Source: Acidimicrobiales bacterium | Lineage (GTDB): Bacteria > Actinomycetota > Acidimicrobiia > Acidimicrobiales > CAIXPF01 | Direction of reading: 5' to 3' | Length of the DNA stretch: 48,594 nucleotides | Assembly: GCA_046153015.1 (NCBI GenBank) | Contig: JBJXGF010000326.1 | Location: forward strand, 1 to 48,594 | Shown here: one piece after another, positions 18 to 48,594 of the stretch | Layout: every line of letters starts with the position of its first letter | Position numbering within the stretch: position 1 is the stretch's first letter | Position numbers and translations under genes: made by a program | Notes under the pieces: model-generated | The model's database searches: none | Seen by the model: only the letters and a program-made list of their open reading frames with translations | What the model was told of the DNA's origin: nothing

Positions 18-560
18 TTGATCGTGGCGTTTCGTGCAGCCAGTCCGCCGGTGAGCTGGACACCCCCGACGCTGCGGGTACTGGCCCGTACGGACCTGCA
101 GGCGATTCTGGCAGAGTCCTACCCGCCCGAGGCGCAGCTCCCCATCGGCGTGGCGCCCTTCACCGCCTGGCAGTTGGTGTACGCCGACGGGGCGTGGCGC
201 ATGGCGGCACACGGCGGCTGCACGAGGTTTGGGTGGATCGATGGTTTGATGGCCAGTCCTTGGGAACTCGATCCCACCCAGCCGGCGCCCGGGCCGGGCA
301 GCACCGAGTTGGCGGTACTGGTGCACGCCCACCATTGCGCCTCAGGCCAGTTGGCCACCGGCCGAGTCCGTCCGCCCCACATCGTGTACGGCGAATCAAC
401 CGTTGAGATCGCCATCACCGTCACTCCCCCGACGGGCGCCCAGACCTGCGCGGGCAGCCCACCCACCCCGTTCACCGTTCATCTGGACCAGCCCCTCGGC
501 GCCCGACAACTGCTCGACAGCGGCCGGGAGCCGATAGCGGCGCCGGGCCCACCCTGGTAG
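18..560 (+). CDS. hypothetical protein; the frame stays open to the left edge, so it may be 5'-partial
   Basis: 180-aa ORF from the track. No stop in this frame between nt 3 and 18. No motif I recognise. Confidence 0.4.
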   Translation: MIVAFRAASPPVSWTPPTLRVLARTDLQAILAESYPPEAQLPIGVAPFTAWQLVYADGAWRMAAHGGCTRFGWIDGLMASPWELDPTQPAPGPGSTELAVLVHAHHCASGQLATGRVRPPHIVYGESTVEIAITVTPPTGAQTCAGSPPTPFTVHLDQPLGARQLLDSGREPIAAPGPPW

Positions 561-642
561 CGCAGGTGCGCCTCCCCGCTCGCTGATCGGGCGACTTGCC
601 GGACCCGAACGCATGAGCAATGAATGGCGCGCCGGGCAGGTG

Positions 643-1068
643 TCACCCGTCGATGAACTCGTGCACCACACCCAGCAGCTCGTAGGTACGCCGGGCCCGC
701 AGGTCACGGGTGAGCAGCCGGCAACCGTTCGTCCGCGCTGCTTCTCCGACAAGCGCGTCGTAAACCGCTCCCCCGATCAACCCAATTGTGGAGAGCCTGG
801 CGAACAGCGCCTGGGCGGCGTCCGGGGCGAGCCAACAGACCCTGGGAAAGGTCCGTCCGATCACACTGGCGGCGGTGGGCGCGTCGAGGGCCAACTGACC
901 CGGCATGCGAGTCAGCACCGAGAACGTCTCCCAGGCGGCATGACCGGCCAGCGCCGGACGGATCGATCGCACTGCGGCCGCGCACAGAGCATGCGCCGCG
1001 TGCCCCCGATCGAGCGCTGCGACCGCCACGCTGGTGTCGGTCGCCCAGCCTTCAGCGCTGGTCGCCAT
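643..1068 (-). CDS. vapC: PIN-domain toxin (VapC-like)
   Basis: ORF 643..1092. The N-terminus WATDTSVAVAAL carries the first PIN acidic residue, and the size is ~140 aa. I moved the start to ATG 1068 (MATSAEG), which overlaps the end of the upstream antitoxin gene. Confidence 0.75.
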   Translation of the reverse strand: MATSAEGWATDTSVAVAALDRGHAAHALCAAAVRSIRPALAGHAAWETFSVLTRMPGQLALDAPTAASVIGRTFPRVCWLAPDAAQALFARLSTIGLIGGAVYDALVGEAARTNGCRLLTRDLRARRTYELLGVVHEFIDG

Positions 1069-1297
1069 CGCGCCAGCGCTGCACATCAGCATCGGTGATT
1101 GAGACCCCGACGACCCGCTCGATCACCGGCCAGCCGTCATCGTCGATCACCACTCGCCCGCGGCCTCTGCGTGGCGTGAGCCGAATCCCGTCACCGTCAG
1201 CGGTCAGCTCAAGTTCGGAGTCCGCGGCGATCGCAAGACGGTCACGCACTTCCTTGGGGATGACGACCCGTCCGGCACGATCGATCGTTACCATCAT
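1052..1297 (-). CDS. vapB: AbrB/SpoVT-type antitoxin (VapB-like)
   Basis: MMVTIDRAGRVVIPKEVRDRL is an AbrB/MazE-type swapped-hairpin N-terminus. About 81 aa. It overlaps the downstream PIN gene. Confidence 0.75.
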   Translation of the reverse strand: MMVTIDRAGRVVIPKEVRDRLAIAADSELELTADGDGIRLTPRRGRGRVVIDDDGWPVIERVVGVSITDADVQRWRDGDQR

Positions 1298-1366
1298 GGA
1301 TGCCACGGTACCACCACCGCTGGACGTGTTCGAACCGCAGCGGGCACGATGCGCCCCCACCTGCGC

Positions 1367-1490
1367 ATGAACGAGATTGGGCGTCGTGGTTACACGAGTC
1401 CTCTACGCGTCGAGCAGGCTGCCGCTACCCGTCAACGGATCCTCGACGCCGCAGTCGCGCCGCTGCAGGAGACGGGCGCCAGCGAGGTTG
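1367..1490 (+). pseudogene. TetR-family regulator, N-terminal fragment only
   Basis: RRGYTSPLRVEQAAATRQRILDAAVAPLQETGASEV looks like the start of a TetR HTH domain. After it the frame loses all similarity and runs into a transposase remnant. Confidence 0.45.
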
Positions 1491-1587
1491 CGGACTTGCG
1501 CCCGGCGGTGGGCAGTATCTGGTGCCCGGAACGGGCTGACCGGCCCCTATCCACGCTTCCACCACCGGCGCTTCATCGGCGCAACTG

Positions 1588-1763
1588 GTGTACCACCGGG
1601 CCGCAACACCACCCCCTCCTGCGGGTCGTACAAACACCGCCCGCCAAACCGTCCTCGACACCGCCTACCAGACCCACCCCGAACGGTTCCCCAACGGACA
1701 CCCCCACCCACCCACCAACCCGCCCGGGTATGGATCAACCCCAACCAAATCAAATCAAAATAG
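1588..1763 (+). mobile_element. remnant of the C-terminal tail of an rve-type (IS3/IS481-like) transposase, frameshifted
   Basis: ARQTVLDTAYQTHPERFPNGHPHPPTNPP in one frame and ARVWINPNQ in another match the usual ..VLDAAY..HPERF..PP.P..AWIN.P tail of these integrases. An A-rich stretch (caaatcaaatcaaaat) follows. Confidence 0.5.
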
Positions 1764-19489: not shown

Positions 19490-19532
19490 GAACTGTGTCC
19501 GATGACGGCGCCACCCCGACCCAACACTGCCG

Positions 19533-20194
19533 ATGTCCGTTCCGAGATCGAGGACCCGAGGACGGGTCGAGACCGCGCCGTGGATCGTCGCACTGTTCGG
19601 GATCCCTGCGGTGCTGAGCCTGCTGCTGGTTTGGCGCTATCGCCAACCGATCGTGCTCACCGGCAACGTCTTCGTCTGGATCTACCTCGTCCGCCTGGGA
19701 GGAGACATCGGCTGGAGCGATCTCGTCGGCGCCTCCATGCTCGCCGGCGTGATCGTGACCGCACTGGCCCGCTGCGGCTCACCCGGTTCCTGACGCGTTG
19801 GCTGCCATCATCCATCGTGTCGGCACTGCTGGCGGGCGCCGTGCTCGGCTTCTTCATCGACCCCTTCAGCGCCCTGGACCGTGAGCTCGTACTCGTCGGC
19901 GCCCCGCTCATCGCCTATCTCCTCGCTCGATCGACAGGACGGGCCTGGCTGCCGCCGATGCTGCCCGCCTTGGTCGCCACCGTCACCCCCGTCGTGGTCC
20001 TGTTGATGACGCTTCCCACTAACATCCCCTCGATGGTCCTGCTCGAAAACAACGGCTACCAACCACCCAAAGGCATGATCGGCACCGTCAGCGGGCTCAG
20101 CACCATCGCCAGTTCGCTCCTCGGCCCCTCCGCAACATCGCTGTCGCTACCCGGAACCGCCATCTGCCTTGCACCCGACAGCGCCATTTGGTGA
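19533..20194 (+). pseudogene. BenE-family transporter paralogue: 5'- and 3'-truncated, with a frameshift near 19772-19778
   Basis: Frame 1 (WIVALFGIPAVLSLLLV..GASMLAGVIVTALARCG) and frame 2 (LTRFLTRWLPSSIVSALLAGAVLGF..NIPSMVLLENNGYQPPKGMIGTVSGLST) align colinearly with the intact BenE at 15335. The first ~45 aa and the last ~130 aa are absent. Confidence 0.6.
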
Positions 20195-21244: not shown

Positions 21245-21414
21245 TGTGTCGGAGGGGGGACTTGAACTCGCCACAGGCCAGTAGCGTCGAGCGACGGGGA
21301 GCGGCAGCTACCGGCGTTGAGCTGCGGGTTCGCGAGCTTGGCGGTCGCTAGTTGCCGCTGCCCGCCGCTTGATTCCGCTCGCTGCCATTAGCAAATCTAT
21401 TAGCAACCGACACG
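21245..21414. repeat. full-length copy 1 of the ~170-nt repeat family (tRNA-3'-end-like terminus)
   Basis: Starts TGTGTCGGAGGGGGGACTTGAAC and ends ATTAGCAAATCTATTAGCAACCGACAC. Contains GGCAGCTACCGGCGTTGA. It ends 7 nt from the stop codon of the antitoxin gene. Confidence 0.8.
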
Positions 21415-21420
21415 CCGTCG

Positions 21421-22460: not shown

Positions 22461-22500
22461 AGCGGCAACCACCGGAAGCACAGGTACGGTGTCGGAGGGG
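22461..22500. repeat. stub of the repeat family: flank-module tail plus the first 13 nt of the left end
   Basis: AGCGGCAAC....TACGGTGTCGGAGGGG. It shares AGCGGCAAC and the 17-mer TACGGTGTCGGAGGG with 48053-48090, and then diverges. Confidence 0.6.
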
Positions 22501-22737
22501 CGAGTTGCACCATAATAAAACCACGAGGCGGGGCTGGCGGCGAGTTCAGGATCGCAGCGTGAGCCAACCCTGCTCGGACGGAGTGCTCGAGACGGTACTG
22601 GCGGACGAGCACGGGCCGCTGAGCCGTCGTAGCGGTCGCGTCTCCATGAAGGACGTCACCTCGCATCGGGAGGGCGCGTGGAAATGCGCTCATCGGACGC
22701 GTACAATGCGGGCTATCGATCGCGTGGAATGGGGAGC

Positions 22738-23997
22738 ATGACTGGCCGCAGCTACATCGAGCGACTCGTCGACCCGTGGCTCGCCGAACTTGTTGCCGAC
22801 GTTCCAGCCATCATGCTCGTTGGGCCTCGCGCCACCGGTAAGACGACGACCGCCGCCAGACTCGCCCGGACCGTCCTCCGCCTCGACGACCGCAACGTCC
22901 GTGCCGCGATCACCGCAGATCCTGACAGCGTTCTACGCGACGCCGATCCGCCCGTCCTCGTCGACGAGTGGCAACTCGCACCCGACGTCCTCGCCGCTAC
23001 GAAACGACTCGTCGACGCCGACCCCTCGCCAGGACGATTCCTCCTCGCGGGGTCCGCCGCCGATGACGCCGGCGCCCAGCAATGGCCCGGTACCGGACGA
23101 GTGATCCGGGTCCCACTCTGGAGTCTCACCCAGCGCGAACTCCACACGAAAGTCGCAGGACCGACGTTCCTCGACCGGATCATCGAGGAGATCGACACCA
23201 CCGGCGAGGCGACGTTCCCGCTGCCCGCCGAACACCCCGACACCGCGGGGTACGTGGACCTCGCGTTGGCATCAGGCTTTCCCGAAGCCCTGGCCCGGAA
23301 CTCGGTCAGAACCAGGTCAGCGTGGCTTGACTCCTACCTCGACCACCTGATCGGCCGCGACGTCGCTCTCCTCACAGACGTGCGAAACCCAGGCAAACTG
23401 CGACGTCACCTTCGAGCGATCGCCGCATCGACGGCCGCGTCACCCACCTTGGCGACACTCGCCGAGGCCTCCGAACTCGACCGGTCCACGATCGAACGGT
23501 ATGACCTCCTCCTCGAACGACTATTCGTCACCGAGCAAGTACCGGCATGGTCCTCGAACCGGCTCACCCGCATCACCCGACGCCCGAAACGCTACATATG
23601 CGACCCCGCGCTCGCAGCCACAGCCCTCGGCGTCGACCGGCGAGCCGTGCTTCGCAACGCCGACCTACTCGGACGGATCATCGACACCTTCGTCGCCGCC
23701 CAACTTCGACCCGAACTCAGCCTCGGCACCCGACCAGCAGCCATGTACCACCTCCGAGAACAGTCCGGCCGGCGCGAAATCGACGTCATCCTCGAACGCC
23801 GCGACGGCGCCATCGTCGCCATCGAAGTAAAGGCCGCGACCGCCGTCGACGAACACGACGCCCGCCACCTCGCCTGGCTCCGCGACCAACTACCCACCGG
23901 CAACGTCCGAGCCGGCCTGGTCCTCTACACCGGAACCCTCGTCCGCCCACTCGGCCGAAACCTCTGGGCAGTCCCGATCTGCACGCTCTGGGCATGA
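22738..23997 (+). CDS. AAA-type ATPase of the AAA_14 + DUF4143 kind
   Basis: Walker A LVGPRATGKTT. VLVDEWQLAPDV (Walker B region). The C-terminal EIDVILERRDGAIVAIEVKA is nuclease-fold-like. I set the start at ATG 22738. Confidence 0.8.
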   Translation: MTGRSYIERLVDPWLAELVADVPAIMLVGPRATGKTTTAARLARTVLRLDDRNVRAAITADPDSVLRDADPPVLVDEWQLAPDVLAATKRLVDADPSPGRFLLAGSAADDAGAQQWPGTGRVIRVPLWSLTQRELHTKVAGPTFLDRIIEEIDTTGEATFPLPAEHPDTAGYVDLALASGFPEALARNSVRTRSAWLDSYLDHLIGRDVALLTDVRNPGKLRRHLRAIAASTAASPTLATLAEASELDRSTIERYDLLLERLFVTEQVPAWSSNRLTRITRRPKRYICDPALAATALGVDRRAVLRNADLLGRIIDTFVAAQLRPELSLGTRPAAMYHLREQSGRREIDVILERRDGAIVAIEVKAATAVDEHDARHLAWLRDQLPTGNVRAGLVLYTGTLVRPLGRNLWAVPICTLWA

Positions 23998-24263: not shown

Positions 24264-24378
24264 GGTGTCGGAGGGGGGACTTGAACTCGCCGCACGCCAC
24301 CGGCGGTAAGCGGCAGGGAGCGGCAGCTACCGGCGTTGAGCTGCACGTTTCTGGTGGTCGTGGTCGCTGGATGCCGCT
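24264..24378. repeat. copy 2 of the repeat family (left two-thirds only)
   Basis: GGTGTCGGAGGGGGGACTTGAACTCGCC...GGCAGCTACCGGCGTTGAGCTGCAC...GGTCGCTGGATGCCGCT. Similarity stops abruptly at 24378. Confidence 0.8.
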
Positions 24379-24384
24379 CCCTCA

Positions 24385-38699: not shown

Positions 38700-38872
38700 G
38701 GTGTCGGAGGGGGGGACTTGAACCCGCCCCAGGCCAGTAGCGGCAAGCGGCAGGGACCGGCAGCTACCGGCGTTGAACTGCACATTTCCGGTGGCCGTGG
38801 TCGCTGGTTGCCGCTTGTTGCCGCTCGATTCCGTTGCCTGCCATTAGCAAATCCATTAGCAACCGACACACC
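38700..38872. repeat. full-length copy 3 of the ~170-nt repeat family
   Basis: GGTGTCGGAGGGGGGGACTTGAACCCGCCCC...GGCAGCTACCGGCGTTGAACTGCAC...TTGCCGCTTGTTGCCGCT...CCATTAGCAAATCCATTAGCAACCGACACACC. Confidence 0.8.
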
Positions 38873-39230
38873 TCACACCTCACGCCGCCCGGCGGCCGGC
38901 GGCCTTGCCGAAGGTACCGGATCTGCAGGGTGCCGCCGTTCCGCGCCTCGCCTTGGCCCGGTGTCGCCGCGGACCCCTGGACCAGGGGCTGTTCCGAGCC
39001 GGCGGGTTCAGGGTGGGCCGCCAGCGATGATGTGAGGCTGACGTACAATGCTCCGGCTGCTGGAGAGCGTGAGACCCACCTCGTTGAGCCCCATGGGGAG
39101 CACACGCGACGCGGTACAAATGCGGCTCGTTCGAGAACCTGTTCTGAGTCGGGGTTATGTGTTGGCCATGGCCGTCTCGGACATAATAGGTTCCTCTGGG
39201 AACGTGTTGCGCTCCGACGGGACGGGATTG

Positions 39231-39944
39231 ATGGCCGACTACAGCGTAAAGGAGGCGGCTGCGGCGCTGGGGGTCTCGGTGCAGCATGTTCGGCGCCTCA
39301 TCCGTTCCGGTCTGCTGCCGGCAAGGCTGATCGGTGACGTATGGGTGCTGCCCGCAGATGCGGTACGGGAACGGTCTTCAATCGCTCCGCCGGCCGGGCG
39401 GCCCTTGTCGGCGGAGACCGCATGGCGGCTCCTGCAGCTTGTTGACGTCACGCTCGTCCGATCCGCGGTCCTTACAGGTGAAGTGCCCACGGCGCTGGAC
39501 GAGTTGGCTGGCTCCCGTCACCAGAGGAGGCGTCTCCTCGACCATCTCGCCCACGCCCCCGATGTGGGTCAGTGGCACCTGTGGCTACGGCGACGCGCCG
39601 ACAGGAAGCTCTGGTGGGTTCATCCCGCTGCGATCGCCAAGCTGGACGCAGACGAGCGCGTGCAGCACATACACCCCCCGGCCGTCGTTTGGCCCGACGG
39701 GGACTCGCGCTACGTTTCCGCTGCCGATGAAGAACATCTCGCCGCCACGTTCGCGGCGAAGCCCGCCAGCGATGGAAATGTGGCGCTACTCGTCTTCGAT
39801 CCCGACGTTGCACCAGGACGCATCCCCGCTGCTGCCGCCGTGGTAGACCTGCTGAACTCCCCCGAGGCGCGGCAACGATACGCCGCCGGCGAGGCGCTCG
39901 GCGGTGCGCATCGCAGGCTGCTCGCCGAGTTCAAGCGACCGTGA
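39231..39944 (+). CDS. excisionase/MerR-type HTH protein with an uncharacterised C-terminal domain
   Basis: MADYSVKEAAAALGVSVQHVRRLIRSGLLPARLIGDVWVLPADAV is an HTH_17-type motif. About 237 aa from ATG 39231 (ORF 39048..39944). It lies 27 nt upstream of the NTase gene. Confidence 0.65.
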   Translation: MADYSVKEAAAALGVSVQHVRRLIRSGLLPARLIGDVWVLPADAVRERSSIAPPAGRPLSAETAWRLLQLVDVTLVRSAVLTGEVPTALDELAGSRHQRRRLLDHLAHAPDVGQWHLWLRRRADRKLWWVHPAAIAKLDADERVQHIHPPAVVWPDGDSRYVSAADEEHLAATFAAKPASDGNVALLVFDPDVAPGRIPAAAAVVDLLNSPEARQRYAAGEALGGAHRRLLAEFKRP

Positions 39945-41272: not shown

Positions 41273-44200
41273 TCAGCGCAGACGCAGCTGGCCTCGACCG
41301 TCCCGAAGGACCTGGCCGCCGTTGATGAGGTCGTGCACATGCCGCTCAAATGCCGCGTCGATATCCGCGCCTACGCGGCGCCAACCAAACAACCTGGCCC
41401 ACTCCATGCGCAGCTCTTCGGGTATGGCGCCACCAGCGTCGTGCAGTTTGTAGAGCAGTGCTAGTCGCAGTTCCTCTGGCGGGACGTGCCCCACGGCTCT
41501 GACCGAATGCTCCTCGTTTGGGATACGCACGGCCGTCTGCGAGCCTGGGACACGGAAGAACTGGCCGTCGGTCTCAACTTCTTGACGGCTGACGGCCTGT
41601 TGGGCCGCCGCGTCGAATGCAGCCTGGATCCTGGACCCCGCACGCTTAATGTTCCAGGCGGACCGTACCGCATCCAGTACTGCGGAGTGGTGGAGCGGAC
41701 CGAACTCGCGCACAACTTCAACAAGCATTGCTCGAACGACCCCCCGAGCGGCTGGATCCACGAAATCGAGTGCTGGCGGCGTGGTGCGCACGGTCGGCGG
41801 AACGAAGAATTCGGCCCACTCCGGACGGGCATCGAAGTCGTTTCGTTCTGTTACGACCATTACCGGGGGGCGCCGTTCCTCCGCCTCCGGCTGTCCCCGC
41901 CGGCTTGGTGCGGTGCTCAATGCAGCCTTGACCGCGTCACGGATGCGTTGCAGTTCCCGTTCCCGATCGCTGAGCCACGCTGTGCTCCAGATTCGATGGA
42001 TGTGCCACCCCAGACCCTCGAGAACCTCCTGGCGCAGACGATCACGGTCGCGGGCGACTTTGGAGGAATGGTAGGTGTAGCCGTCGCATTCGACGCCGAG
42101 CACGAAGGAACCCGGCAACGTCGGGTGCTTGATCCCGATGTCTATTCGGTAGCCGGCCACGCCCACCTGCGGGACGGCCTCAAGCCCGAGCCGACGGATC
42201 GCCGCGCCGACATCCTCCTCGAACGGGCTGTCCGGGCCAAGCGAACTGCCGGTCACGTCGAGCGCGAGTGCAGCAGGTCCTCGTTCAGCGAAGTCGAGAT
42301 ATCGGGCCAGGTGGCGCAGCGACGGGGTCTCCGACGTGATCTGCCCGGCCACGACCGAACTGACAACCTCAAGGCGGTGACGCGCTCTGGTTACTGCCAC
42401 GTTGAGGCGGCGCTCTCCCCCTTGGCGGTTCATGGGTCCGAAATTCATCGTCAACTTGCCGTGCTCATCCGGCCCGTACCCGACCGACAAAATGATGATA
42501 TCCCGCTCGTCCCCTTGGACGTTCTCTAGGTTCTTGACAAAGAACCCTGACAGCCGGTCGGCGTCCTCAAGTTCACGTAGTTCCGGCTCGCGCTCGCTCC
42601 GACGTTCGATCTCGGTTTCGATACAGATTTGCTGGGCGCTGGACAGTGCGACGACACCAATACTCAAGCCGGGGTGGTTGCGGCGATGGAAAAGGACCCG
42701 GTCAACTACCTCCGCCGCCTCTATAGGGTTGTCGCGACTGGTCCCCCGCCGGTAGTGGCCGTTGACCTTGAACAGCTCGACCCCGAGATCCGGGGCTGTA
42801 TGGATCGCTCCGGGGAACGTGTGGAGCCGTCCTTCATAAAAGGAGTGGTTGGAGAACGCGATGAGGTTCTCGTGACGGCTGCGGTAATGCCAGCTCAGAG
42901 GAAGGGTAGGCAACCCCTGGGCCCGGCAACGGTCGAGGACAGACTCGAAATCAAGGAGCTCCTCCCCCTCGGCTTCCCAATCGTCCTCCCCGACGGTCCG
43001 AGCGAAGAAGTCGGTAGGAGGCAGCTGCTTGGGGTCTCCTGCGACGATGAGCTGGTTACCGCGATAGATGGCGCATATTGCGTCCGCTTCTCGGACCTGG
43101 GATGCCTCGTCGAATATGACAACATCAAACCGAAGCGACGGTGGAAGGAACTGGGAGACCGATAGCGGGCTCATCATGAAGCACGGCATCAACCGCTGCG
43201 CGGCCTCCCCCGCTTCGCTCAGAAGCCGACGTACGGGCTTGTGGCGCACTTTGAGCTGCGCTTGCTGGCGGATGACACCCGCCCCGCCGGCCAGCGAGCG
43301 AGGGCGGAGCTGGGCGCAGGCGTTGATCACCTTCGATGCCGCATCAGCGATGAGCTCCCGGTCAAGTGCCTGGAAATCCGCTACGAGCGCATCTCGGTCT
43401 GTTGAGCGGGTCGGCTGGAGTCGGCTGTCGACGGACATCGTGTCGTCCAGCCATCGGGTCAGGGCGGCGCGCTCGATGGTGTCAGCGATGTCCGTGGCCG
43501 CAGCCCGGCTGTGCTCGAGAGTCGAAACAACGGGCTCCCACCCGCTCTCGCACAACCACGACCTGGCTTGTGCGTAGCTGTGCCATTCCTCGATGTCGTT
43601 GACCGTCGAGCTGAGCGCAGCGAGGAGTTCCACGCCGCCCTCGAACGTTTCCATATCGGCGGCGAGCGTGGCGGCATAGGCCGGGTCGAACTCGCCCATC
43701 AGTGCGGCTACCGCCTTGTCGAACATTGCCTTGGCACCGCGCAACGCGGCCGCGTCGAGCGAGGCGCCGAGAATTGCTGCTGCCGTGCGGGGCGGGACCG
43801 CGCCCCGAAGGCACTCCCGCATCTCAGCCACCCACGCCGCGGCGCTTCTAAGAAGATCGGGGTGTGGATCGACCGCGAGAGGCCCCAAGATCGGCTGCAA
43901 GTGGGCGAGGTCTTCACGCACTAGAGGGTCCAACCGATCGAGTTCCCGCCGGGCGTGTGCTATCTGTCGCGCATCCGCTATCAGGAGTGGTTTGGCCGCT
44001 GCGGTGTCCAGAACTCGGACAACTTGGGCGACATGGTGCGCCGTCGTGGCCAGTGACCCGCACCAGCTCGCAACCTCGCTCAGTGGGCGCCGAAACACCA
44101 CCGCGGCGTGTGCGCCCAGCGTCGAGCTCAGCCGGCCCGTGGCCAGCGCCGTCGCCGCGGCGCGCGCTGCCGCCACCGCCGCGGGGAACCGGGGATCAGG

Positions 44201-46768
44201 GTCCGACCCGACTGCGAGTTGCCGGGCGAGCGCGGGTGAATCCACAAGGCCAGCGGCCAGTTCAAGCGCCTTGTCTGCGAGGCTCAGCGCCCGCTCGAGC
44301 GTGGCGAAGTCGGCGGCATCGCGCGAAGGGTAGTAACGGGCGCCGACCTGGGGGCCGTGGACGCGCTCAGCCTGGGTGATGCGCTGGCGTTCGTCCTGCC
44401 ACTCGATCGCTTCAGCCAGCCGATCGAGCATGTCGCTCGTCACCTTCCCGGTAACGGAGACGCCAGCCAGACTCTTCTTGTCGTGTCGATATTCGGCCTT
44501 CAGCTTTCCGGGTCCGCGATGCACGGTATCGAAACGAGCCTTGAGCGCGCGAAGATCGAGATCGAGCACGGCGGGGCTGAACGTTGTTTGCATCGACACC
44601 GAACGGGCCCGATATCTCTCCAGGAGCTCACGAAGGACCTGGCGCGCCTCATCGAGCGCCGGGCGCGCAGTGGGGTTTAGCCACCAAGGCTCCGGGGGAG
44701 TTGGCGAACCAGCAAGGCTCGCCAACTCCACGAGGCGCAAGGTCGACTCCGCTGACACCTCGACGCCCGCCACACCGAACGCTTCAGCCAGGATGGACGA
44801 TGCGCCCTGGAGTTGTGCGACCCACTGGCCGGCCTCGTCGAGTTGTTGGGCGAGGTCGTCCAGGGCCGAGGCGTGCCATTGGTCAAGCGGGCCGAGCATC
44901 GAATCGGCCTGCTGCACGGCGGCCTCAGCGCCATCCATGGCGTCCGCGATCAGCGGGTGAACGTCGCGCCAGCCCGGCGCCTTGGTTTCGAGCAACTCTA
45001 CGGTGCGCTGATGGTCCACGATGTTTTGTGTCAAGTTTCGTAAAGGCGCAACAAAAGGCGCAAGATCCGGCGCCGTGAGCCAGTCTTGGCCGATCTGCGG
45101 CCGACGTTCGATCAACTCCAACACTGCAAGATATGACGAGACCTGGGATGAGCTCGAGCAGCGGGCGATCACGAGCTCTTGAGCGAGGTTGTCCAATTCG
45201 GCTCGGAGCGTGTCAAGAGCGGCACTGCAGCTGTTCACCCGCCGCCGCAACTCGGCCTGCCGTGACATGCCGCCCGCGGGGTCGCGCAGGTCGCGCCACA
45301 GGAAGTCTTCCCTCCGCGCGATGGGGCCCCAGGCGCGACCGAGGCGCTCTGCGGCGTCCCGGAGCGTGGCAAAGCCCACTGGGCTCAGGTCCTCAGCGGC
45401 GACGCGGGAGATCGGCACATCGGGCAGGTTCCGTAGCTGCGAGATCCGCCCCGCAACATCGTGTATGGATCGCTGAAGAGGCTGGCGAACCTCATTGACG
45501 GCGACCGCGTAGTTGGTGAGCATCTGGCGCTCGCTCGTAAGGCGCGCCCGGCGGCCCGGATCGAAGGTCGACGTTGCGGAGAGTTGCTCCTCGAGTGCCT
45601 TCCCCAGCGCCGTGGCGACAGCCTTGCGGCTGGCGTTGTGCGAGTGCAGCTCCAGGACAAACGGGTCGAGGTGGGCCGCTGCGAGCCGGTTCCGAACGAC
45701 ATCCAGCGCCGCCGCCTTTTCAGAAACGAAAAGCACCGTCTTCCCGTCGGCCATGAGCTGGGCCAAGAAATTGGCGATCGTCTGGGACTTGCCGGTACCT
45801 GGCGGCCCGTCCATCACGAAGCTTCGGCCCTCGCGCGCCGCGAGCAGACACTGCCGTTGAGTTACATCCGCGTCCAGCACCGCGGCCAGCTCCTCGGGCG
45901 GGTGACGCTCGTCCAGCTCCTCCTCGCCGAGCGGCGCGAAATCGAGGTCTTGAGCCATAGCGCTCGTCGGGCCCTCCGCCAGCAGCCGGACCAGCGGGTG
46001 CGCCCCTATCAACTCGGCGTTCTCCTTCAAATCCTGGTAGATCGCCATCTTGTGAAACGTAAAGGTCCGCAGCACTGCAGAATCCCCAACTGTCCACCCG
46101 CTGGCTGCGACCTCGCGCCGGACGAGGGCAAGTACCTCGTTCACGGTCGCGTCGCCGGCCTCGTCCAAGTCGGGAAGCATCAGTCCGAAGTCGCGTTCCA
46201 ACTTGATCTTCAACGCAGGGTTGAGGTATGCCTCAGCCTCATCGGTTTTGGTGAGCCGCCACCGACCAGACTCCATTTCAAGTTCTACCGGCACCAGTAG
46301 CAATGGGCTACGCGCCGGCTTGTCGTCGACATCAATCCAGTTCAGGTGGCCAAGGCCGAGAAACAGAACCCACAGACCGGTGTCCAGGAACTCCTGCCGG
46401 GCCGTTTTGCTCAGCAACTTGAGGCTTCGCTCGATTTGCACCCCGGTGCGGTCGTCGAAAGCCACAACCAACTCGTCCCGGCCGGGCCGATGAACCGGGG
46501 CCGCGCCGGTTCGGGGACTCGGTGGTTCCGGGGGAAGGAAGAACCGCCATCCACGGGACCGGCCGGTGAGGCCTTCCTCAACCTCGACTGCTGGCTGCTT
46601 GAACTCCAGGGATGAGGATCTGGTGTGGGAGAAGTACAACAACTTGTTGCGGCGGCTGAGATCAACCAGGTCTGCAGCCCATCGATCAAGGTGATCTGCC
46701 ACGACACCACTGGCGTGGCTCCCAGGCGTCCCTACAGTCATACGAGCCTTCTCCACCACGTCGCACAT
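41273..46768 (-). CDS. 1831-aa SF1 (Upf1/AAA_11-AAA_12-like) helicase fused to a Vsr/DUF559-like endonuclease and a DUF3320-like tail, with a DUF4011-like N-terminus
   Basis: Walker A MDGPPGTGKS (45785-45808, aa 321-328). Motif II VVIFDEASQV (DEASQ at 43097-43111, aa ~1220). IVAGDPKQLPPT, SWHYRSRHENLI, GGERRLNVAVTRAR. Nuclease block GYRIDIGI..VLGVECDGYTYHSS..RDRDRLRQEVLEGLGWHIHRIW (aa ~1560, nt ~42060-42120). N-terminal DLSRRNKLLYF. Confidence 0.9.
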   Translation of the reverse strand: MCDVVEKARMTVGTPGSHASGVVADHLDRWAADLVDLSRRNKLLYFSHTRSSSLEFKQPAVEVEEGLTGRSRGWRFFLPPEPPSPRTGAAPVHRPGRDELVVAFDDRTGVQIERSLKLLSKTARQEFLDTGLWVLFLGLGHLNWIDVDDKPARSPLLLVPVELEMESGRWRLTKTDEAEAYLNPALKIKLERDFGLMLPDLDEAGDATVNEVLALVRREVAASGWTVGDSAVLRTFTFHKMAIYQDLKENAELIGAHPLVRLLAEGPTSAMAQDLDFAPLGEEELDERHPPEELAAVLDADVTQRQCLLAAREGRSFVMDGPPGTGKSQTIANFLAQLMADGKTVLFVSEKAAALDVVRNRLAAAHLDPFVLELHSHNASRKAVATALGKALEEQLSATSTFDPGRRARLTSERQMLTNYAVAVNEVRQPLQRSIHDVAGRISQLRNLPDVPISRVAAEDLSPVGFATLRDAAERLGRAWGPIARREDFLWRDLRDPAGGMSRQAELRRRVNSCSAALDTLRAELDNLAQELVIARCSSSSQVSSYLAVLELIERRPQIGQDWLTAPDLAPFVAPLRNLTQNIVDHQRTVELLETKAPGWRDVHPLIADAMDGAEAAVQQADSMLGPLDQWHASALDDLAQQLDEAGQWVAQLQGASSILAEAFGVAGVEVSAESTLRLVELASLAGSPTPPEPWWLNPTARPALDEARQVLRELLERYRARSVSMQTTFSPAVLDLDLRALKARFDTVHRGPGKLKAEYRHDKKSLAGVSVTGKVTSDMLDRLAEAIEWQDERQRITQAERVHGPQVGARYYPSRDAADFATLERALSLADKALELAAGLVDSPALARQLAVGSDPDPRFPAAVAAARAAATALATGRLSSTLGAHAAVVFRRPLSEVASWCGSLATTAHHVAQVVRVLDTAAAKPLLIADARQIAHARRELDRLDPLVREDLAHLQPILGPLAVDPHPDLLRSAAAWVAEMRECLRGAVPPRTAAAILGASLDAAALRGAKAMFDKAVAALMGEFDPAYAATLAADMETFEGGVELLAALSSTVNDIEEWHSYAQARSWLCESGWEPVVSTLEHSRAAATDIADTIERAALTRWLDDTMSVDSRLQPTRSTDRDALVADFQALDRELIADAASKVINACAQLRPRSLAGGAGVIRQQAQLKVRHKPVRRLLSEAGEAAQRLMPCFMMSPLSVSQFLPPSLRFDVVIFDEASQVREADAICAIYRGNQLIVAGDPKQLPPTDFFARTVGEDDWEAEGEELLDFESVLDRCRAQGLPTLPLSWHYRSRHENLIAFSNHSFYEGRLHTFPGAIHTAPDLGVELFKVNGHYRRGTSRDNPIEAAEVVDRVLFHRRNHPGLSIGVVALSSAQQICIETEIERRSEREPELRELEDADRLSGFFVKNLENVQGDERDIIILSVGYGPDEHGKLTMNFGPMNRQGGERRLNVAVTRARHRLEVVSSVVAGQITSETPSLRHLARYLDFAERGPAALALDVTGSSLGPDSPFEEDVGAAIRRLGLEAVPQVGVAGYRIDIGIKHPTLPGSFVLGVECDGYTYHSSKVARDRDRLRQEVLEGLGWHIHRIWSTAWLSDRERELQRIRDAVKAALSTAPSRRGQPEAEERRPPVMVVTERNDFDARPEWAEFFVPPTVRTTPPALDFVDPAARGVVRAMLVEVVREFGPLHHSAVLDAVRSAWNIKRAGSRIQAAFDAAAQQAVSRQEVETDGQFFRVPGSQTAVRIPNEEHSVRAVGHVPPEELRLALLYKLHDAGGAIPEELRMEWARLFGWRRVGADIDAAFERHVHDLINGGQVLRDGRGQLRLR

Positions 46769-47881: not shown

Positions 47882-47912
47882 CATTGGCAGATCCATTAGC
47901 AACCGACACACC
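47882..47912. repeat. 31-nt right-end fragment of the repeat family (direct repeat of 38842-38872)
   Basis: CATTGGCAGATCCATTAGCAACCGACACACC versus CATTAGCAAATCCATTAGCAACCGACACACC, 29 of 31 identical. Confidence 0.75.
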
Positions 47913-47952: not shown

Positions 47953-48078
47953 AGCCGATGGAGGGGATTCCGCAGCCCCACGTCCGACACTTCGACCCTC
48001 CGGACCCGCACGACCACGGTCAGCGAGATTTCGGGGCCACTGACCGGCAGCCAGCGGCAACGAACGGCAGGTAGCTAC
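47953..48078. repeat. flank module X (copy B)
   Basis: GGGGATTCCGCAGCCCCACGTCCGACACTTCGACCCTCCGGA...GACCGGCAGCCAGCGGCAACGAACGGCAGG is colinear with 38573-38699. Confidence 0.65.
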
Positions 48079-48097
48079 GGTGTCGGAGGGCCGACAC
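48079..48097. repeat. collapsed repeat: left-end stub joined directly to the right-end terminus (perfect 7-bp hairpin)
   Basis: GGTGTCGG AGGG CCGACAC. The first 12 nt of the element are followed at once by its last 7 nt. Confidence 0.6.
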
Positions 48098-48402
48098 AAA
48101 CCCCAAGTACACGGGATCCCTGGGTCCACCAATACGCAGCCGCCTGACCTGCGAGCCCCGGGTTATGAGCCCTATTTTCGATCATTCGTTTCACCTGGTC
48201 AGGGCACATCGTCCCAGATCAGAGGCCATTATGGCCACCCGTTGTTGCCCGCTGGAGACCCCAAGTTGCCACTGTGCTGTGAGATTATTGTGAGATTTTC
48301 TGTAGCCCTTGGTGCGGCCGCTCGCCGCCGAGCCGGGACTCACGCCCGACCACTGAGGGTGGTGGCCTGCCCGGTCGTCGCTGGCGGTTGTGGTGGCGCC
48401 GG

Positions 48403-48594
48403 CTACCGCCAGGTCCATTCCGCGGCGTCCCACGTTTGGGGCCGGGCGGGTGGTGCGAGGATCGGTGCCCAGAGTTGTTGCAACGCCGCGTAGGCCGCGT
48501 CGAGGTTGGTCCAGGGGATCGAGTGGTCGCGTACGTAGCCAGCCCAAGTTCGTTCCCATTGGGTGGGCGGTGGCGGAAGGATTGTGGGCAGGCT
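48403..48594 (-). CDS. 3' end of a gene that starts beyond the right window edge; product unknown
   Basis: An open frame runs from nt 48594 down to TAG (48403-48405): ..TQWERTWAGYVRDHSIPWTNLDAAYAALQQLWAPILAPPARPQTWDAAEWTWR*. It is not in the ORF track because it has no start codon in the window. Confidence 0.35.
   Translation of the reverse strand, partial: SLPTILPPPPTQWERTWAGYVRDHSIPWTNLDAAYAALQQLWAPILAPPARPQTWDAAEWTWR

Follow-up and report, generated by a model that had tools for sequence, protein, structure and literature searches.

A giant single-gene helicase-nuclease with a modular helical insert from an Acidimicrobiales contig: a divergent member of the DUF4011/Hhe/ProA/PDC-S37 superfamily with a probable defence role

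The 48,594-nucleotide contig JBJXGF010000326.1 of an Acidimicrobiales bacterium (assembly GCA_046153015.1), referred to at its full length as the window, carries on its reverse strand a single 5.5-kb gene for a giant helicase-nuclease. The encoded protein appears to be a stand-alone member of the DUF4011/Hhe/ProA/PDC-S37 superfamily that falls into an uncharacterised clade with a helicase insert of the 900-residue class, that was probably acquired horizontally and that most likely acts as a single-gene defence system, a reading to which a probability of about 0.6 is given. With at most 54% identity to any member of a collection of 5.8 billion proteins, the gene adds a divergent member to an abundant family of single-gene helicase-nucleases that is mechanistically unexplained. 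A long helical module is universal in this family and has no solved structural counterpart; what is new here is that this insert is made of duplicated helical modules, two of which are extra in the clade of the window gene.

The open reading frame (ORF) was described in an earlier note on this DNA as fully open and as holding the motifs of both a helicase and a nuclease, and regular-expression searches together with translation of the 1831 residues bear this out. The Walker A sequence GPPGTGKS is found at residues 321-328 (nt 45785-45808) and the motif II sequence DEASQ at residues 1220-1224 (nt 43097-43111), 899 residues apart, followed by GDPKQLPP at residue 1244 and RRLNVAVTRAR around residues 1453-1463; the nuclease block opens with VECDGYTYH at residues 1559-1567, and RDRDR and GWHIHRIW follow. 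The proposed four-part architecture, consisting of DUF4011, a helicase, a Vsr-type nuclease and a DUF3320-like tail, is likewise recovered by hidden Markov model (HMM) searches in which each Pfam domain, that of the nuclease included, scores above its cut-off (Table 1). In an alignment of 42 close homologues, on which all statements about residue conservation are based, every residue of DEASQ, GDPKQLPP, VQGDERD and RRLNVAVTRAR is invariant, as are D1543, E1560, D1562, H1567 and D1576 among the acidic and histidine residues of the nuclease domain, and the RDRDR residues. All helicase and nuclease catalytic motifs of the ORF are intact. Translation may in fact begin at Met10 (ATG at 46741), because residues 1-16 are modelled with a predicted local distance difference test score (pLDDT) below 50 and because the homologues start about 15 residues ahead of a conserved V..L..W motif.

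By sequence and by predicted fold the helicase core is of the Upf1-like superfamily 1B (SF1B) type, as the earlier note had surmised. Its sequence matches in the PDB are to IGHMBP2, SETX/Sen1, UPF1 and Dna2, and a Foldseek comparison of the modelled core with the PDB returns the same set of proteins (SETX, Sen1, IGHMBP2, UPF1 and Dna2; E 7e-11 to 1e-8, probability 1.0, 320-430 aligned columns). The core has the fold of RecA1/RecA2 and holds motifs I, Ia, II, III, V and VI, which are invariant, and from this family membership translocation in the 5'->3' direction on single-stranded nucleic acid would be expected. The RecA1/RecA2 core and its motifs are shared with UPF1, IGHMBP2, Sen1/SETX, Dna2, Aquarius and nidovirus nsp13, whereas the accessory element, which in those helicases amounts to a few tens of residues, is here a series of helical repeats of ~790 residues, and fused Vsr-type nuclease, DUF4011 and winged helix-turn-helix (wHTH) domains are added. 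In contrast to Dna2, the nuclease sits C-terminally and is of the Vsr type. With Mokosh MkoA/MkoC and other AAA_11/AAA_12 defence helicases the core alone is held in common (PADLOC MkoA 86 bits, MkoC 73 bits), and no accessory domain or partner gene is shared with MkoA/MkoC. DUF3320 has been described as a wHTH domain and MTES_1575 as a Vsr-type restriction endonuclease (REase) (PMC3710099). A sequence-only search of the PDB with the nuclease domain gave only a non-significant match to a RAP domain (E 0.71).

The separation of Walker A and DEAS by about 900 residues had been singled out in the earlier note as unusual; the length stands, but it holds throughout the family and is not peculiar to the window gene. 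A search of the 5.8-billion-protein collection gave over 5800 matches, and the top 120 are nearly all of 1800-1950 residues with an identical Pfam string. The distance is 893-924 residues in all 42 close homologues (median 903), with a gap fraction of at most 0.01 across the insert, and W480, W491, P692, W696, D763, G809, W979, W1062 and D1136 are among its invariant residues. More widely, it is at least 539 residues in each of 74 relatives, all taken from named genomes of bacteria or archaea, and it falls into classes of ~625-655 (the majority), ~680, ~850 and ~890-930 residues, with one of 1275. When the insert alone (residues 400-1195) was used as a phmmer query against the whole library, 704 representatives of 50%-identity clusters were matched, 195 of them at E <=1e-30; among the best 150, every match that is not a fragment is a protein of equal size with the insert in the corresponding position.

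On the basis of its model scores and domain order the gene almost certainly belongs to the superfamily of DUF4011, split SF1B helicase, MTES_1575 and DUF3320 proteins that includes Hhe, ProA and PDC-S37. Its top PADLOC model is PDC-S37 (PDLC05009, a candidate system of PADLOC-DB v2.0.0; 1224.9 bits) and the second is Hhe (PDLC02194; 547 bits), no curated cut-off entering the comparison with either. Among NCBIfam models ProA ranks first (NF058533; 1205.7 bits against a curated equivalog cut-off of 1500), and Hhe (NF042953) gives 772.8 bits, its own cut-off being 2000. The PDC-S37 match comes in three stretches, the best being residues 972-1822 against model positions 685-1540; on ProA the best stretch covers residues 621-1798 (model positions 836-1903), and on NCBIfam Hhe only residues 1056-1631.

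Hhe (hheA) is an E. coli single-gene helicase plus Vsr-endonuclease defence system, according to two preprints that cite Gao et al. 2020 (bioRxiv 10.1101/2022.06.16.496414 and 10.1101/2024.10.10.617714). The earlier note had equated the window gene with it, and of this the kinship survives: both are single giant polypeptides in which DUF4011 is followed in turn by an SF1 helicase, a nuclease of the Vsr type and a tail of the DUF3320 type, and both Hhe models match significantly. It is very improbable, however, that the gene is hheA itself, since the score stays far under the Hhe cut-off, which is reached by none of five relatives from different length classes either, the PDC-S37 and ProA scores are about twice as high, and only the C-terminal 40% of the protein aligns well with Hhe, which belongs to a different clade and a different phylum.

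Relatives from named genomes give a frame for these scores. Relatives of the ~640 and ~850 insert classes qualify as genuine ProA with 1563-2359 bits (2359 and 2137 bits for the relatives at loci L045 and L024, 1563 bits for that at L025), and the short form of the family, of ~1600 residues, fits the PDC-S37 model end-to-end (1906 bits, L025). A Prescottella relative of the same 900 class as the window gene (L001) has 1168 and 1232 bits on ProA and PDC-S37, near the window values, and a Streptomyces relative of the ~690 class (L008) has 1132 bits on ProA, of the same order as the window protein. To judge from these comparisons the 900-insert class is a distinct, uncharacterised sister clade within the superfamily, found mostly in Actinomycetota and scattered over other phyla; the best named relatives are from Acidimicrobiia/Acidimicrobiales metagenome-assembled genomes and from Actinomycetes. 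Because this clade lies outside the curated ProA and Hhe models, annotation pipelines will label its members only as "DUF3320 domain-containing protein". The order of DUF4011, an SF1B helicase interrupted by the long helical insert, MTES_1575 and DUF3320 is the same in ProA and PDC-S37; unlike the 640 class of these, the window clade has an insert longer by ~270 residues, with two extra helical modules, and it is without the N-terminal extension of ~350-400 residues that puts Walker A near residue 700 in the long ProA forms. In extended ProA-class relatives (L024, L030, L033, L039, L045 and others) the additional region ahead of DUF4011 corresponds to ProA model positions 1-350, Walker A lies at residues ~690-870 and the total length is ~1800-2270 residues.

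The insert was modelled with AlphaFold2 in two overlapping constructs, residues 290-1489 and 1-1200, from 41 sequences each. Mean pLDDT is 85.8 and 86.1, most of the insert lying between 80 and 95, and in both models residues ~404-1193 form about 45 helices of 4-33 residues each. The composition of residues 400-1195 (Ala 17%, Leu 12%, Arg 10%, Asp 7%) and the all-helical model agree with the Ala/Leu/Arg/Asp-rich, helix-prone character noticed earlier; the coiled coil suggested at the same time is ruled out by a chain of so many helices, the longest of only 33 residues. Against the PDB the 1-1200 model yielded for the insert only generic long-helix matches (MukB, JetC, dynein and talin; probability <0.5, TM <0.1), and the 290-1489 model matched through the helicase core alone.

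Internal repeats were sought by profile-profile comparison of sub-alignments, and two tandem repeats were found: residues ~499-618 match ~631-753 at an offset of 132 (probability 95.7%, E 1e-8), and residues ~779-921 match ~932-1060 at an offset of ~150 (probability ~90%), most other pairs of insert sub-windows remaining below 10% probability. A profile of the 900-class insert aligns by hhalign end-to-end with one of 47 inserts of the 640 class (probability 100%, E 2e-102, 625 aligned columns), which leaves two modules confined to the long class, each a unit of one of the tandem repeats (Table 1). With individual ProA-class proteins, BLASTP aligns both insert ends and not the middle. At the level of these profiles the insert is a conserved base with a stack, variable in length, of helical units of ~130-150 residues, and the 900 class differs from the 640 class by an additional copy of each of two units; discrete size classes exist because the module is built from duplicated units. 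The longest insert seen, in a 2273-residue protein of Streptomyces sp. NPDC001480 (L009, 9887-16708) with the gap of 1275 residues, may carry further module duplications.

The insert lies between motifs Ia and II, which is the site of subdomain 1C (the "stalk" or "prong") in UPF1 and Sen1 structures, and motif order suggests that it occupies the topological place of an Upf1/Sen1-type subdomain 1C. The distal modules are the least conserved part, at 23-26% identity. It is conceivable, if rather doubtful, that unit copy number fixes the length of the insert as a modular arm and defines the clades of the superfamily, that the arm serves as infection sensor or oligomerisation scaffold to gate the nuclease, and that its distal modules carry the specificity for the trigger. 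Such an arm, if it is real, would be a structural principle that has not been described in an SF1B helicase or in a defence protein. Within the insert there is also a polar motif, H-x-G-x-x-K-L-x-x-x-Y-R-x-D-K ... G-K-V-T (residues 749-778, 44435-44524, reverse strand), whose YRxDK part is residues 760-764; besides the invariant D763, conservation reaches at least 90% at G752, K755, Y760, R761, K764 and G774, and the region may be a functional site and not just scaffold.

The DUF4011 domain is modelled as alpha/beta, with a helix at residues 109-130, strands at 135-145, 151-166 and 169-174, a helix at 184-194 and a strand at 226-235. This order of helix, three strands, helix and strand over residues ~109-235 recalls the PD-(D/E)xK nuclease core; no invariant D/E-x-K triad is evident in the homologue alignment, and Foldseek comparison of the 1-1200 model with the PDB gave no solved-structure match for the domain. 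The region may be a degenerate nuclease-like fold that binds DNA.

Table 1. Positions of the helicase-nuclease gene, its parts and the recognisable elements around it (nucleotide numbering of the window; Pfam scores in bits with the cut-off in brackets).
Feature	Nucleotides	Residues	Strand	Remarks
Helicase-nuclease ORF	41273..46768		-	open for 1831 codons, complete
DUF4011	46199..46669	34-190	-	Pfam 76.3 (22.2)
AAA_11, split		~304-363 and 1213-1252	-	Pfam 70.7 (27)
RecA1, first part	45569..45859	304-400	-	holds Walker A and motif Ia; from Pfam, motifs and AlphaFold model
All-helical insert in RecA1, between motifs Ia and II	43190..45568	~401-1193	-	from alignment and AlphaFold model
Extra helical module 1	44651..45049	574-706	-	133 residues, in the 900 class, not in the 640 (ProA / PDC-S37) class; unit of tandem repeat 1
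Extra helical module 2	43763..44242	~843-1002	-	~140 residues in four pieces, long class only; unit of tandem repeat 2
RecA1 remainder and RecA2	42356..43183	1196-1471	-	DEASQ, GDPKQLPP, VQGDERD, RRLNVAVTRAR
AAA_12		1276-1471	-	Pfam 55.7 (27)
MTES_1575, Vsr-family REase-like domain (PF18741)	41933..42223	1516-1612	-	Pfam 120.8 (38.2), E 2.6e-35, profile positions 1-95 of 96
DUF3320	41624..41767	1668-1715	-	Pfam 36.6 (25)
Direct repeat, left copy	38842..38872		+	CATTAGCAAATCCATTAGCAACCGACAC; 28-31 nt, last part of the dispersed repeat copy of ~170 nt at 38702-38872
Direct repeat, right copy	47882..47912		+	2 mismatches against the left copy
HTH_17 (excisionase / MerR-like) DNA-binding protein	39048..39944		+	Pfam; sole other recognisable gene in the segment between the repeat copies

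The relative for which activity is on record is Hhe, which is active against lambda, T3, T7 and PhiV-1 and loses this activity upon the E1731A substitution in its Vsr domain (bioRxiv 10.1101/2022.06.16.496414); T7 DNA-metabolism genes behave as its triggers, and so does g40 of Bas63, which is toxic in the presence of Hhe (bioRxiv 10.1101/2024.10.10.617714). The counterpart region of E1731 in the window protein is invariant, and model offsets suggest that E1560/D1562 of the E-x-D-G motif are the exact equivalent. A defence function of the window protein is considered fairly probable. Such a protein would by itself give protection from phages or from other DNA that invades the cell: its SF1B motor would be loaded onto single-stranded nucleic acid arising from phage replication or recombination and translocate 5'->3' with ATP, the Vsr-type domain would cleave or nick DNA in coupling to translocation, and the C-terminal wHTH (DUF3320) and N-terminal DUF4011 domains would hold the DNA. 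The helical arm may then act as a rigid scaffold of tunable length, which would gate the nuclease by sensing the substrate or a phage protein or by mediating self-association. If the structure and the trigger of one family member were known, all of them would be explained.

The distribution of relatives is patchy over many bacterial phyla and archaea, at similar identities throughout. Relatives are present in 489 plasmid records, of which 209 are conjugative (Klebsiella, Ralstonia megaplasmids, Acinetobacter and haloarchaea), and in only 3 of 50,697 phage records. Full-length archaeal relatives of 31-37% identity, from Bathyarchaeia (L002 and L007), Woesearchaeota (L053) and haloarchaeal plasmids (hits H2, H3 and H6), point to transfer of the family between domains. 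No conserved partner gene was found, in that no Pfam family recurs among 67 and 119 neighbouring proteins, and the ORFs that flank the window gene were without any tblastn match at 85 homologue loci; the neighbours in two sets fall into 131 and 145 distinct Pfam families, again with no recurrence and without synteny. The gene is thus a single-gene unit without synteny.

The earlier note held that an island setting fits a defence role, and the homologues agree with this only in part. One adjoins a type I restriction-modification (RM) system with an integrase nearby, and another adjoins SbcCD-like and PLD-helicase-DUF3427 genes; among the 67 neighbours, drawn from 13 loci in or close to the 900 class, with a Walker A-DEAS distance of 863-929 residues, PADLOC recognises type IIG RM (twice), AbiD, a methyltransferase and mad2, and Pfam recognises insertion sequence transposases, Abi_2 and Eco57I. 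Others, as set out below, stand amid housekeeping genes. At locus L081 (1280-9864), a 560-residue protein, Metallophos, SMC_N/AAA_23 and three small proteins lie directly upstream of a 52%-identical homologue (P0010), with a second AAA_11/AAA_12 helicase and its RNase_H_2 partner nearby and a PLD-DEAD-DUF3427 protein downstream; this region looks like a defence island.

A role in chromosomal genome maintenance, as a Dna2- or AddAB-like enzyme that processes stalled forks, R-loops or flaps, would account for a core closest to IGHMBP2, Sen1/SETX, UPF1 and Dna2, which are housekeeping nucleic-acid processors, for the many homologues amid housekeeping genes, and for the very well conserved insert length, which suggests a fixed structural role; in P. 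aeruginosa, moreover, a DUF4011 gene is reported to belong to the core genome and simply to border a defence hotspot (Johnson et al. 2023, PMC10250203). Such a role is nonetheless unlikely in view of the non-syntenic neighbourhoods without a recurring family, the patchy spread over phyla and archaea, the presence of relatives on hundreds of plasmids, many of them conjugative, the anti-phage activity of Hhe as the tested relative, and a third-position guanine plus cytosine content (GC3) of the window gene below that of its neighbours.

The single-gene defence reading remains the preferred one, and besides the core-gene status in P. aeruginosa a number of further points weigh against it. The window protein does not reach the curated cut-off of either named anti-phage equivalog, Hhe or ProA; PDC-S37 is a candidate defence system only, and a literature search found no primary paper that describes ProA or PDC-S37, names that rest on model libraries. 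By Pfam the window proteins include no recognisable defence neighbours and no integrase, and the repeat family that flanks the gene (Table 1) also brackets a 17-kb metabolic block at 21.2-38.8 kb and is not specific to the segment of the gene. An Amycolatopsis homologue stands alone amid housekeeping genes, one in a 4.4-Mb genome lies between pyruvate dehydrogenase genes, and at 60 loci of the wider family the adjacent neighbours are mostly ordinary genes. On the structural side, the overall domain arrangement of the AlphaFold2 models is unreliable (predicted template modelling score 0.43-0.46), and the sensor or scaffold role of the helical arm is pure conjecture.

In the window the left and right repeat copies bracket a 9.0-kb segment that holds the helicase-nuclease gene, where no such match is expected by chance. 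The earlier note had spoken of a repeat-bounded island, and the flanking repeats are indeed there, but they belong to a dispersed family of ~170 nt with copies at 21246-21416, 24265-24381 and 38702-38872 (74-85% identity between copies) and fragments at 22487-22510, 47882-47912 and 48073-48094. The first ~25 nt of the repeat, read as reverse complement, resemble the T-arm and acceptor end of a tRNA (GGGTTCAAGTCCCCCCTCCGACACC). A tRNA or attachment (att) site was rejected as the nature of the repeat, ARAGORN finding no tRNA, Rfam giving nothing at gathering thresholds, and metabolic genes being flanked as well. The copies could be stacked att remnants or an element of the miniature inverted-repeat transposable (MITE) or repetitive extragenic palindromic (REP) kind.

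Horizontal acquisition of the gene is plausible. The mean GC content of the window is 0.670 and that of the ORF 0.648, the 4th lowest among 173 sub-windows of 5.5 kb, and GC3 is 0.75 in the ORF against 0.77-0.88 in nearby metabolic genes, a modest shift in composition. The flanking ORFs are without Pfam match and show weak GC3 periodicity of the coding type. Together with the missing integrase in the bracketed segment, these flanks would suit an inactive relic in a decaying island, whose reading frame is open by chance or was recently disabled. This, too, can be given very little credence: the frame is open over 5.5 kb with a coding-type GC pattern along its entire length, there are no indels relative to the homologues even in the fast-evolving insert, and the invariant residues of the alignment, helicase and nuclease motifs included, are all kept, as they must be by construction in the window sequence. 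The claim that the neighbouring genes are decayed is likewise not demonstrated, for the flanking ORFs merely match no Pfam family and the only clear gene fragment observed in the window lies 20 kb off. It is a 230-residue ORF at 19502-20194 (forward strand) that corresponds only to profile positions 112-174 of 378 of the BenE benzoate transporter and is probably a truncated gene.

A scan for promoters and terminators around the helicase-nuclease gene gave nothing informative. The rest of the window encodes mostly metabolic enzymes, among them TauD, a nitroreductase, an amidase, PhyH and the alpha and beta subunits of a Rieske dioxygenase. At its right end an ORF at 48300-48594 (reverse strand), with the C-terminal peptide ...WERTWAGYVRDHSIPWTNLDAAYAALQQLW..., runs off the contig. 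Between the repeat copies at 22.5 and 24.3 kb lies a gene for a 439-residue AAA_14 + DUF4143 ATPase (22678-23997, forward strand), a region that looks like another small inserted cassette.

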